In this document: positions 41,996-44,390 of the stretch, in pieces
Numbering within the stretch: the stretch's first letter is position 1
How the letters are laid out: the number at the start of each line of letters is the position of its first letter
Assembly (NCBI GenBank): GCA_963846365.1
Contig: CAWJVN010000002.1
Coordinates: forward strand, 692,157 to 756,156
Direction: 5' to 3'
DNA: 64,000 nt
Source: an uncultured Chloroflexia bacterium
Lineage (GTDB): Bacteria > Chloroflexota > Dormibacteria > Aeolococcales > Aeolococcaceae
Made by a program: the position numbers and the translations under genes
The notes under the pieces: generated by a model
Told to the model about the DNA's origin: nothing
Seen by the model: the letters and a program-made list of their open reading frames with translations, nothing else
The model's database searches: none

Positions 41996-42039
41996 CTGAA
42001 AACCCGGTGTCGTCGGTTCGATCCTGACCCTCGGCACCA
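41996..42039 (+). repeat. tRNA-Phe(GAA) 3'-half-like sequence (anticodon loop to CCA), copy 1
   Basis: cuGAAaa CCCGG ugUC GUCGG UUCGAUC CUGAC CCUCGGC A CCA shows an anticodon loop with GAA, T-arm, acceptor 3' strand and CCA; no matching 5' half upstream, so not a complete tRNA. Confidence 0.6.
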
Positions 42040-42155
42040 GCAGTTGGCGGAGGCGGCGGCCGCCGCAGGGAAGCTGCCGCCAGTCGCGCCTCTCCAATCC
42101 CATCTTCCGTGCCCGGCTCCTCGACCAGCTCGAGGAGCCGAGCACGGCGTGAAGG

Positions 42156-42571
42156 TCAGCCCGCGATGAAGGTCCCGTTCATGTCGGGGTGCGGGTCGCA
42201 CCGGAAGAAGAACGTGCCCGCTGGCAGGCCCTGGACCGAGTACGTGGTCTTACCCGGCCCATCGATGAGCTCGCCCTTGAAGAACGTCTTGCTGGCGGTC
42301 TGGTCCTCGTAGATCGACACGTTGTGGGGAATGGCCCTGTCCAGGTTGGTGAGTTGATCGTGAACGCCTGGTTGGCGGGCGCGGCGAGGCACTTCTTGTC
42401 GAACTTGCTGTCGAAAGACGTGATCGACAGCTTCGTGCCGTTAGGGCTGCAGGTGCCGCCCGCCACCTTCGGTTGAACCGCGGCTGCCAACGACCCGCCA
42501 CCGGTCAGGACCAGCATCGAGATGGCCGCGACCACAGGCAGGTGCATGCGGTTCGAGCGTCCCCGCATCAA
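42156..42571 (-). pseudogene. Cupredoxin paralog, frame disruption near 42350
   Basis: Signal peptide plus N-terminal half in ORF 42179-42571; copper-site half (FFRCDPHPDMNGTFIAG) in ORF 42156-42392; one nt missing relative to copy 1 (gtgagttgatcgtg versus gtgaagtcgatcgtg). Confidence 0.6.
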
Positions 42572-42705
42572 CTCAACCTGGGGCAGTCAGCCGGCGGGGC
42601 CTGCGTGAAGTCGACCGCCGTGATCGTGTTGCCGATGACCGGCAGCGGCGTCGTGGGGGAGGTCACGTACATGGTCCAGGGGACGACCGTAGTTCGGTTC
42701 TCGGC

Positions 42706-43644
42706 TCAGCGAAGCTGGGTCGGGCACTCCGACGGCGGCGCCTGCGTGAAGTCGAAGTGGTCGGGATTGCTGTCGAGGACCGGCAGCGGTTCGCCGTGCC
42801 TCAGGTTGAACCCGAACAACGTGATCACCGCCGGTTCGTTGCCCTCGACGACCCCCAGGTGGCGGTGCACCGGGTGGATCCAGGCATCGCCGGCGTGGTA
42901 CTCCTCGACTTTCTCGCACTTCCCGTTGCGCGGTGCGTAGAAGGCCCACGTCCCCTTGGTGAGGATGGCCACGTGGGGGGTGTGCGCGAACCAGCCGGTG
43001 CTGAAGCCGGGTTGGAGGGTCACCGTGGTCATGAAGGCGTCTTTGCCGGCCTCGACTGGCAACTCCTGGGAGGCGCCGTAGGCCTGACCGCCGGCGTGAG
43101 ATTGCTCGAAGTAGGGCGAAGGATCGCCCCGGAACGACTTTCCCGTGGAGATCCCGTTGGCCACGATGGCGGCGGCGAACCCGGCACAGGGCGGTGCCGC
43201 TTCCGTCGGCCCATCCACGAGCGGTGCCCCACCGCCGTGCGGGAGCCCGGTGAAGTTGGCGAGCAGCTCCACCGGCTGCTGCCCGACGTTGTGGAGGCGG
43301 AACTTGCCCGGCGGCAGGACGAGTGCATTCCCGGCCGCGAGATCCCCGCTGGCGCAGCCCTCGGCCTGTTCGACCTTCAGCGAACCCTTGGTGATGGCCA
43401 GCGCCGTGGTGCCCGGGCCGGTCCGCCAGCCGGTGTCGCCGCCGGGCGCCACCATGTAGGTCGACGACAGTACGTCGTGACCGGTTGGGGCGACGACCTT
43501 GGCATTGGCGACCTGCTGGGCGCGCCCGTATTCCGTGGAGCTGAACTGCCCCGTAGGGGGCGTGGCGGACGCGACGTTCACGGAGGCCAGGACAGCAACG
43601 GTGGCGAAGACGGTGGACAGGGCAGGGAGTTTGCGCATGGACAT
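42706..43644 (-). CDS. Secreted bicupin protein, paralog of 37592-38500
   Basis: Signal peptide MSMRKLPALSTVFATVAVLASVNVASA; same two-cupin architecture, diverged (not a recent duplicate). Confidence 0.6.
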   Translation of the reverse strand: MSMRKLPALSTVFATVAVLASVNVASATPPTGQFSSTEYGRAQQVANAKVVAPTGHDVLSSTYMVAPGGDTGWRTGPGTTALAITKGSLKVEQAEGCASGDLAAGNALVLPPGKFRLHNVGQQPVELLANFTGLPHGGGAPLVDGPTEAAPPCAGFAAAIVANGISTGKSFRGDPSPYFEQSHAGGQAYGASQELPVEAGKDAFMTTVTLQPGFSTGWFAHTPHVAILTKGTWAFYAPRNGKCEKVEEYHAGDAWIHPVHRHLGVVEGNEPAVITLFGFNLRHGEPLPVLDSNPDHFDFTQAPPSECPTQLR

Positions 43645-43717
43645 CTCCTCATCTTCCCGCTAGCCCGCGAGAGGATCCGTTGTCGCTCCCCCCGCCCGTC
43701 ATGCTACGACTTTGGCG

Positions 43718-43745
43718 CGTGAGGAACAACTCGTGAGGAACAACT
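43718..43745. promoter_or_regulatory. Tandem direct repeat CGTGAGGAACAACT x2 upstream of bicupin paralog
   Basis: Two exact 14-nt copies head to tail, 74 nt upstream of start 43644. Confidence 0.3.
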
Positions 43746-43761
43746 GAACGAAAACCACGCT

Positions 43762-44148
43762 TCAGGAAACCTCTGCCCTATCGTCGCGTCTCGCACCTCC
43801 GAGCAGCCTCAGCGCGGCCCGGTGCCGCGAGGATGCCAAGCAGGGCCAACGCCCGGGACCAAGGATCGCGGTGAGCATGAAGGCTCCATACGCGAGACCA
43901 ACGGCCGCTCGCCGGCCCTCGGCGAGGCCGATCATGAACAGGTCCATGCCCGTCCCCACGACGAGAAGCGCCACCCCGGCGGCCGCCAATGAGACCCCGC
44001 CGGCGACGAGGAGTCGCTCGGGCGTCGACGGAGCCGGACGCCGGTCCCCGGACACCTCCCAGGCGTAGCCCGCGATCCCGACCATACTGACTGCGAGGAG
44101 GTCCACCACGAGCAGCACCCGCCAAATCGTCTCACGCCGAGTTCGCAT
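43762..44148 (-). CDS. Small membrane protein, hypothetical
   Basis: 128 aa with three hydrophobic helices. Confidence 0.35.
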   Translation of the reverse strand: MRTRRETIWRVLLVVDLLAVSMVGIAGYAWEVSGDRRPAPSTPERLLVAGGVSLAAAGVALLVVGTGMDLFMIGLAEGRRAAVGLAYGAFMLTAILGPGRWPCLASSRHRAALRLLGGARRDDRAEVS

Positions 44149-44345
44149 CCTGGCTTCCCGTCTGCCCCGTCAGCACCCGCTCCCACGGCTCTGCCCCGGG
44201 TCCAGGCAAGGAGCAGGGTGACCACAGTTCCGACCAAAGCGGCGCCGGACACGGGCGAACAGTGGCGGCCGCAGTGGACCCCCATGGACGTTCTCGCCAA
44301 GCTGAGTACCACCAGGGCGGATGGTCCCGGACGACCGGAGGGCAG

Positions 44346-44390
44346 CTGAAAAACCCGGTGTCGTCGGTTCGATCCTGACCCTCGGCACCA
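44346..44390 (+). repeat. tRNA-Phe(GAA) 3'-half-like sequence, copy 2 (direct repeat of 41996-42039)
   Basis: Identical to copy 1 apart from one extra A in the A-run; again no 5' half. Confidence 0.6.

Follow-up and report, generated by a model that had tools for sequence, protein, structure and literature searches.

What does it mean when the 3' half of a tRNA gene occurs twice, about 2.35 kb apart, in DNA in which no complete tRNA gene is found? The question is raised by the 64 kb stretch of bacterial DNA analysed here (the window), where two short direct repeats that read like the distal part of tRNA-Phe bracket a cupin gene and a gene for a small membrane protein. Insertion by a tyrosine integrase into the anticodon loop of a tRNA gene, followed by accretion of further elements and by decay, is a textbook mechanism for such footprints. 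The repeats are probably the core attachment (att) sites of a tRNA-Phe-targeting family that resembles the AICEs (elements of actinomycetes that are both integrative and conjugative), and the bracketed DNA is then an integrase-less remnant that keeps an attR-type junction at its right end. The sites concerned are the following.

41996 to 42039, forward strand: probable left att core (O1), which spans positions 32-76 of tRNA-Phe, CCA included; its anticodon loop is a 4-A variant, and it has no tRNA 5' half, no recognisable upstream (P) arm and no downstream (P') arm.

44346 to 44390, forward strand: probable right att core (O2), which spans the same tRNA-Phe positions 32-76, CCA included; the anticodon loop is the canonical one of 7 nt and the variable loop has 5 nt; an attR-type junction (arm plus core).

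44219 to 44345, forward strand: probable upstream (P) arm of the right att site, recognised by nhmmer homology to the arm of a metagenomic att family; diverged but significant.

A repeat search of the window returned the two cores as a two-copy family (D16) with a spacing of 2351 nt. The left copy reads CTGAAAACCCGGTGTCGTCGGTTCGATCCTGACCCTCGGCACCA and the right copy is the same plus one A, a 1-nt indel that leaves four and five residues, respectively, in the A-run. The exact match covers 41 nt (41999-42039 against 44350-44390), and identity that tolerates the indel reaches leftward to CTGAAAA (41996 and 44346). Within the window this 41-mer occurs exactly twice, and 100 dinucleotide shuffles did not produce it once. 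The block corresponds to tRNA-Phe(GAA) from position 32 to position 76, with the CCA included. When the left fragment was set at the very start of the searched stretch, so that 5' truncation was permitted, Infernal with the Rfam tRNA model aligned it as a 5'-truncated tRNA over model positions 31-71 of 71 (20.5 bits), and the anticodon loop in this alignment is CUGAAAA, giving the anticodon GAA.

Neither copy is a gene. ARAGORN found neither a tRNA gene nor a tmRNA gene anywhere in the 64 kb, Rfam at the gathering threshold matched two group II introns in the window and no tRNA, and the 80 nt upstream of each copy resemble a tRNA 5' half no better than shuffled sequence does. The acceptor 5' strand, the D-arm and the anticodon stem that complete a cloverleaf are lacking at both, and neither site should be labelled a tRNA gene in annotation. 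The original prediction, made from the letters alone, had described direct repeats of about 44 nt reading as tRNA-Phe(GAA) from the anticodon loop to CCA, had denied them a compatible 5' half and hence the status of genes, and had placed the intact tRNA-Phe outside the window; the 41-nt match, the Infernal alignment and the ARAGORN and upstream comparisons bear it out on each point, and the tRNA search that it proposed as a check, run with ARAGORN and with Rfam/Infernal at the gathering threshold, gave no complete tRNA at either site.

The parent gene can be traced in related genomes. A degenerate tRNA-Phe pattern, fixed at the anticodon loop, at the T-loop and at the 3' strand of the acceptor and nowhere else, found many tRNA-Phe genes, several of them in metagenome-assembled genomes (MAGs) of Candidatus Dormibacterota, and the block is 93% identical to the bona fide tRNA-Phe genes of three such MAGs (L109, L120 and L048). 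The Dormibacterota genes read GCCGAGGTAGCTCAGTTGGTAGAGCACGGGT followed by CTGAAAAACCCGGTGTCGGCGGTTCGATCCCGCCCCTCGGCACCA. From C32 to CCA the window block equals them except in the T-stem (GTCGG/CTGAC as against GGCGG/CCGCC), where pair 50-64 has changed from G-C to U-A, a compensatory replacement, and pair 52-62 from G-C to G.U. A short Logan contig (L146), reached via the cupin gene of the insert, begins inside a tRNA-Phe whose first 7 nt are lost at the contig end. Its 5' part is Dormibacterota sequence, its T-stem (GTCAG/CTGAC) is fully paired, and its 3' half differs from the window block at one position; the order on the contig is intact tRNA-Phe, a 128-nt downstream arm with two copies of GACCACAG, and then a cupin-2 gene about 90-92% identical to that of the window. 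These comparisons suggest that the block derives from a functional tRNA-Phe of the host lineage and that it is still compatible with tRNA folding.

The same block recurs as a family of sites on other contigs. The family was defined from a Dormibacterota MAG contig (L030), which carries three direct copies 1.26 and 2.2 kb apart and on which ARAGORN found no tRNA, and from the contigs L126-L137. A metagenome scan with a pattern that excluded T31, and hence intact tRNA genes, returned 12 contigs, and no tRNA gene occurs in the fetched stretches of any of them. In an alignment of 16 non-identical sites from the Dormibacterota MAG, soil-metagenome contigs and the window, taken with 130 nt upstream and 60 nt downstream, the identity with tRNA-Phe begins at C32 in every case, namely in both window copies and in 14 related sites. 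Most sites have a conserved upstream arm of about 130 nt, in which two direct repeats of 9-11 nt with a 12-nt period are followed by several CGGAC-type motifs and then by a GAGATCAAA or TTTGATCTC motif. The paired repeats differ by subfamily: TGACAACAACC; TACCCCAAC/ACCCCTACC; and GACCACAG/GACCAAAG, the last being the subfamily of the window. In most sites TTTGATCTC stands directly after CCA, and the paired repeat returns at about +55. Paired repeats that lie on both arms and differ by subfamily are the pattern expected of arm-type integrase binding sites, and they would serve as such here.

An nhmmer profile built from the 14 non-window sites gave only two matches in the window, arm plus core at 44219-44391 (profile positions 3-176, 60.6 bits, E 2.7e-18) and core only at the left copy (41998-42044, 38.8 bits). 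The right arm opens with the direct repeats TGACCACAG (44219-44227) and CGACCAAAG (44231-44239) in a 12-nt period, CGGAC-type motifs follow, and its doubled GACCACAG motif recurs in the downstream arm of L146 beside the intact tRNA-Phe. The upstream arm of the family is thus found at the right copy and not at the left, and the downstream arm follows neither. Compared directly, the arm regions of the two window copies showed no significant similarity, the score being equalled in 303 of 1000 shuffles.

This family bears on two other ways of reading the repeats. Pieces of a tRNA pseudogene could have been spread by ordinary segmental duplication, unrelated to site-specific recombination, and there are other duplications nearby (37060-37710 against 42043-42683, and an internal repeat of the cupin 3' end). 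Beyond the 45-nt block the two copies have unrelated flanks, the block starts at the canonical anticodon-loop att boundary common to 14 sites on other contigs, and the arm of the family is present at the right copy, all of which makes such an origin extremely improbable. Alternatively, the block and its conserved flanks might encode a structured non-coding RNA that resembles a tRNA, or form a hairpin for recombination like the attC sites of integrons. In favour of this, the GAGATCAAA motif that several family members have about 60 nt upstream forms the inverted complement of the TTTGATCTC that comes right after their CCA. Copy c on L030 and the site on L137, however, have TTTGATCTC upstream in the same orientation as the downstream motif, so that no pairing arises; the window copies lack the motif and have no Rfam match, the orientation of cargo genes is inconsistent, and the integrases seen are of the phage type with xis and not of the IntI type. 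We give this idea hardly any credence.

The integrases are found on relatives of the window's sites. Two blocks on L130 enclose 12.6 kb of DNA with the gene for a tyrosine integrase of 373 aa (Pfam Phage_integrase 6e-23, with an N-terminal SAM-like domain), whose homologues include proteins on two NCBI Dormibacterota MAG contigs, L138 and L140. The module at 1-3947 of L138 comprises an FtsK/SpoIIIE gene, a gene for a 373-aa protein without Pfam match, one for an HTH_17 excisionase-like protein and the integrase gene. About 260 nt beyond the last lies an intact tRNA-Phe, convergent with it, and the CCA of this tRNA is followed by TTTGATCTC and paired TACCCCAAC repeats. L140 has an excisionase-like gene, an integrase gene and the same intact tRNA-Phe junction with downstream arm, and L130 has the int-xis-373-aa-FtsK module of L138 at 3982-8187, located between two cores. 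The junction in L138 and L140, tRNA plus downstream arm, is a classical attL, and an upstream arm plus core an attR or a hybrid site.

AICEs are recognised by int, xis, rep and an FtsK/SpoIIIE-type tra gene. Both L138 and L130 contain int, an HTH_17 xis and FtsK_SpoIIIE; no Rep domain was recognised in either, the 373-aa protein having no Pfam match. None of these genes lies in the window, where Pfam scans of about 50 open reading frames (ORFs) gave no integrase, xis or FtsK homologue and tblastn with proteins of L130, L138 and L003 returned noise. The view that the repeats are att footprints of a tyrosine-integrase element in tRNA-Phe, enclosing a second copy of the cupin/cupredoxin cassette and a small membrane protein gene with no integrase, therefore stands on the C32 boundary of the family, the arm of the right copy, the integrases of L130, L138 and L140, the junction of L146 and these scans.

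Several side observations concern the same family. Arrays of arm plus core occur at 4350-8000 of L030 (the same as L127) and at 2124-5487 of L137, with spacings of 1.26, 2.2 and 3.3 kb. No integrase lies in their short intervals, which hold between one and three small genes (a DUF2785 gene among them) and resemble the 2.35 kb interval of the window. On L135, a contig of 140,557 nt, a solitary two-armed site (7963-8007) stands among ordinary metabolic genes, and the 11.5 kb fetched contain no tRNA. Domains of DUF4011, of an AAA_11/AAA_12 helicase and of an MTES_1575 nuclease are combined in a 1411-aa protein, encoded at 3888-8123 of L127 and at 9793-14028 of L130, just inside the att-bounded element; this protein looks like defence-type cargo. 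In the window itself the 13-nt string CTGAAAAACCCGG, the anticodon loop plus stem of the att core, occurs exactly at 5987-5999 on the reverse strand with no further similarity in its flanks, and could be chance or a tiny remnant. A string like CTGAAAAACCCGG that the profile search gave at 22411 belongs to a terminator-like hairpin and was rejected as an att core. Viral contigs scanned for the 5-A and 4-A variants of the core gave no match and hence no evidence of a phage nature, and megablast of window positions 36-50 kb against plasmids gave none. For two proteins of the window no identical protein is on record. An integron cassette array was considered and rejected: no IntI was found, the sites are tRNA-derived with phage-type arms, the flanking motifs pair inconsistently and the gene orientations are mixed.

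How far, then, does the window fit the standard picture of an island in a tRNA gene (tDNA)? Judged as Islander judges islands, the window has two copies of a displaced piece that equals a tRNA gene in its 3' part, and the identity begins at a canonical sublocation, the anticodon loop. An intact cognate tRNA at the other end, in the same orientation, is found in L138, L140 and L146 and not in the window, and an integrase gene inside the interval is found in L130 and not in the window. There are att sites at both ends of the interval, with the arm at the right site only, and no recombination or transfer genes between them, which is the definition of a cis-mobilisable element (CIME).

A number of points weigh against the interpretation of the window's repeats as att cores of such a family. 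No intact tRNA-Phe lies within 42 kb upstream according to ARAGORN, and since there is none anywhere in the window, the standard definition of an island (tDNA, displaced fragment and integrase) does not apply there. The host's own tRNA-Phe was not recovered either, because the exact 28-mer of the T-arm and acceptor of the window has no match in 185,579 species-representative genomes or in viral contigs, and the exact 22-mer none in JGI metagenomes. At the left copy a recognisable arm is found on neither side, and the TTTGATCTC motif that follows CCA in the main family stands at neither window copy. On the right, synteny with the closest relatives of the neighbouring PPOX gene (L001-L005) does not extend past the PPOX stop codon, and there is no tRNA at those loci, so that the right flank cannot be called the native sequence downstream of tRNA-Phe. 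Finally, the signal for the host taxon is ambiguous. Dormibacterota are indicated by the PPOX homologues, the integrase-bearing relatives and the type of the tRNA; the nearest named homologues of the cupin are in Acidimicrobiia MAGs, where the gene has a core-chromosome context. This leaves two explanations, horizontal acquisition of the cupin as cargo or imperfect taxon labels.

The explanation by att cores and an integrase-less remnant would run as follows. Tyrosine-integrase elements would insert into the anticodon loop of the host tRNA-Phe, carrying their own copy of positions 32-76. In the intact relatives, which are AICE-like, the order is tRNA-Phe, downstream arm, int, xis, the gene for the 373-aa protein, the FtsK/SpoIIIE translocase, cargo, upstream arm and the displaced 3' half of the tRNA. 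In the window a stump of 2.35 kb (42040-44390) would be left, with the upstream arm and core at the right and the cupin and the small membrane protein as cargo; this stump would have lost int, xis and tra, and its downstream arm would have been replaced by a 650-bp recombined copy of the nearby cupredoxin operon. A cognate integrase presumably acted on this particular copy, and the order of events would be that given here. At the left end, where the 44-nt core stands by itself, a later element may have inserted at the regenerated tRNA and pushed the intact gene beyond the window (tandem accretion), or the region may have been rearranged. We lean towards accretion, because the left boundary is exactly C32.

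In one version of local rearrangement the left copy is what remains of the original tRNA-Phe (attL), its 5' half and adjacent arm having been destroyed by deletions or rearrangements, rather than the right-hand end of another element. The cupin-2 gene of L146 directly adjoins an intact tRNA-Phe, the position held by the left copy in the window; the surroundings at 36.8-50 kb are a patchwork of gene fragments and frameshifted genes; and the base that precedes the left core is T, as is position 31 of the tRNA. A random deletion would, however, have had to stop within 1-2 bases of C32, the attR/attP-type boundary of the family, no similarity to a tRNA 5' half is left upstream, and a cell cannot lose its sole tRNA-Phe(GAA) gene, so that a further copy would be required. 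On balance an attL remnant is unlikely here.

The contents of the interval, together with the related region to its left, are these.

42043 to 42683, reverse strand: cupredoxin segment of 650 bp, 90% identical to 37060-37710.

42706 to 43644, reverse strand: intact cupin-2 gene, probable cargo, with a Cupin_2 Pfam match and a signal-peptide-like N-terminus.

43762 to 44148, reverse strand: gene for a small hydrophobic protein of 128 aa, probable cargo, with two to three hydrophobic segments by hydropathy and no Pfam match; conserved on the metagenome contig L142.

37060 to 37710, reverse strand, outside the interval: paralogous cupredoxin region (copy 1), in which cupredoxin domains are recognised, part of an intact cupin-1/cupredoxin-1 operon (37173-38503).

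The cupredoxin segment holds two hairpins, one at 42051-42085 and a terminator-like one at 42106-42148, a cupredoxin pseudogene (42156-42571) that a 1-nt deletion near 42350, relative to L142 and to copy 1, has split into two frames, and the 3' end (about 100 nt) of a cupin-1-like gene (42587-42683). It abuts the core where L146 has its 128-nt downstream arm, and the unit of the window would therefore have lost this arm by recombination with a cupredoxin operon like that at 37173-38503. The boundary at 37060 matches the junction of core and unit (42040-42043) within 3 nt; a decayed att core was sought to the left of 37060, beside cassette copy 1, and the alignment was no better than chance. 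The two cassettes, 37173-38503 and 42156-43644, have diverged unevenly: identity is about 90-93% in the cupredoxin, in the terminators and in the final 100 nt of the cupin, falls to about 70% in the next 200 nt of the cupin body, and gives way beyond that to sequence without detectable DNA match. The cupin/cupredoxin operon of the unit is a chimera, one that L142 already has. Homologues of the cupin-2 gene are 97% (L142), about 90-92% (L146) and 82-83% (Acidimicrobiia MAGs) identical.

L142, a metagenome contig of 2081 nt from an independent sample, JGI 3300077108, consists of unit sequence only and carries the closest homologue of the cupin. Its full length aligns with two pieces of the window, 44008-44390 followed directly by 42040-43822, at 95.2% identity over 2074 nt, and its order is a fragment of the membrane-protein gene, upstream arm, one core, cupredoxin segment with an intact cupredoxin, and cupin. 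Its upstream arm has a 44-nt deletion beside the core, and its two ends fall inside one gene, 185 nt from each other by the coordinates of the unit. This layout is what would be expected from the assembly of a 2.27 kb circle or of a tandem array, and one contig is compatible with either. The contig shows the 2.35 kb interval to be a discrete module, bounded by cores, which in another population has undergone recombination through its core, for which an integrase and homologous recombination between the 45-nt repeats are both compatible agents. That the insert was a decayed element or island boundary, as the original prediction had it, is right insofar as it is an integrase-less remnant; the permuted copy indicates that it is a discrete module as well and not just debris.

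L142 also gives weight to the livelier rival proposal, that the unit is a still-mobilisable, integrase-less element of the CIME kind, which a co-resident AICE-like element would excise and integrate in trans with its integrase, arrays accumulating at tRNA-Phe. The contig is the unit alone, circularly permuted with one core inside; closely spaced cores with no integrase between them are seen again in L030/L127 (1.26 and 2.2 kb) and in L137 (3.3 kb); and tRNA-compatible pairing of the core is kept across lineages, as G.U in the window and as A-U in L142 and L146. On the other hand, the downstream arm with its repeated motifs is missing, the cupredoxin segment standing in its place in both the window and L142, and L142 has lost 44 nt of the upstream arm beside the core, losses that make integrase-mediated recombination of the unit doubtful. 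Recombination dependent on RecA between the 45-nt repeats would also yield a circle or tandem copies, the window contains no integrase, and circle and tandem array are indistinguishable from one contig. Present mobility is thus possible and somewhat improbable, a shade more so than an attL remnant at the left. Bolder still, the tRNA-Phe locus of this soil lineage, probably Candidatus Dormibacterota, might be a cassette platform on which integrase-less units of 1.2-3.3 kb, each with an arm plus tRNA-Phe(32-76) site at its end, are excised as circles and re-inserted by integrases that co-resident AICE-like elements supply in trans; the cupin/membrane-protein unit of the window would then be a cassette that still passes between genomes, and L142 its circular form; this we consider speculative and clearly less probable than mobilisation as such. 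The interpretation as a remnant of an integrase-bearing, AICE-like element is the one retained here.

The individual parts of this interpretation have parallels in known systems. Islands and prophages that target tDNA at anticodon-centred att sites were reportedly treated by Williams in 2002. As in these, the repeat in the window takes up a tRNA gene's 3' part, beginning in the anticodon loop and running to the end, the displaced fragment keeps the orientation of the tRNA, relatives encode a tyrosine integrase and tandem arrays occur; unlike them, the interval has no integrase and no intact tRNA at either end, and it would fail the Islander filters. The Islander collection lists 3919 islands, of which 3760 have a 3' tDNA fragment, 2083 an anticodon-centred site and 125 a place in tandems of two or more, and an anticodon-centred block is one of the two attP crossover classes that it tabulates (PMC4383910). 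The organisation of the modules in L138 and L130 is that of AICEs (PMC2440964). The likeness lies in the order int-xis-(373-aa protein)-FtsK/SpoIIIE, at the 3' part of a tRNA in L138 and within two cores in L130; the differences are that the apparent host is Candidatus Dormibacterota and not an actinomycetote, that no Rep domain is recognised, and that the window has none of these genes.

In Dehalococcoides, repeated direct repeats of the ssrA 3' end are said to delimit successive islands. These tandem islands are described as the product of site-specific integration into a single-copy small-RNA gene of an uncultured-type lineage (PMC3146451), which is the situation proposed here, except that the target there is tmRNA and here tRNA-Phe. 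CIMEs and accretion arrays are known from streptococcal ICEs, the integrative and conjugative elements of these bacteria, and they too are reported to comprise short att-flanked segments without recombination or transfer genes, in arrays built by successive site-specific insertions (PMC5704250; PMC7563491). The unit of the window differs from these in that it misses one arm, that its circular or tandem form is known from a single metagenome contig, and that mobilisation in trans is putative.

The combination of the arm with tRNA-Phe positions 32-76 provides a precise marker for delimiting mobile DNA in an uncultured and poorly annotated soil lineage, and mobile DNA bounded by such att sites would explain the patchwork of fragments in this part of the window. 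Elements with int, xis and FtsK/SpoIIIE, so far described for actinomycetes, apparently operate also in MAGs assigned to Candidatus Dormibacterota, and among the papers listed by a literature search none combines this phylum with integrative elements. The presence of AICE-like modules in such MAGs is mildly notable, and so is the occurrence of the integrase-less unit, in permuted form, in an independent sample.

The wider surroundings have the same broken character. An eroded island reaching to 49.4 kb had been supposed, and there are fragments that agree with this, namely a DUF4070 fragment at 48869-49387, the 5' part of an acyltransferase gene, a DJ-1 fragment and a regulator at 38.8-41.2 kb with two frame changes; the IS-like fragment that was part of the supposition was not found at 46.9-48.9 kb. 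The N-terminal stub of an alpha/beta-hydrolase-like gene, read from an ORF without Pfam match, appears to abut 37060. Homology of PPOX to its closest relatives (92% at the nucleotide level) ends exactly at the PPOX stop codon (44615) and inside the truncated acyltransferase gene (45343). The stretch 44615-45343, PPOX plus the first 240 nt or so of the acyltransferase gene, is thus an isolated 730-bp island of homology (92%) to the metagenome contigs L001 and L002. The 5' fragment of DJ-1/PfpI, which follows PPOX in L003, is displaced to 46027-46203 in the window and indicates local scrambling.

Other repeats are scattered over the window. A dispersed repeat of about 50-60 nt, with a consensus near CCCAGGGAAGGCCACCNTCGATCATGCCACGGTGGGCAAACCTACCCTGAC and no Rfam match, occurs at 3578-3612, 6515-6549, 10986-11017, 23012-23046, 44452-44486 and 49444-49475, one copy lying 60 nt downstream of the right att core. 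Within an ORF at 22533-22907 that has no Pfam match, five tandem units of 42 nt (66-83% identical to the first) fill 22567-22860. Two group II intron copies of about 1.9 kb, at 347-2272 and 28977-30897 (reverse strand), are 94-99% identical to each other. Their Rfam matches (RF02005) lie at 2013-2236 and 30639-30859 with 190 and 177 bits, and their reverse-transcriptase frames appear broken into short ORFs, with partial RVT_1 domains at 1069-1611 and 29654-30370.

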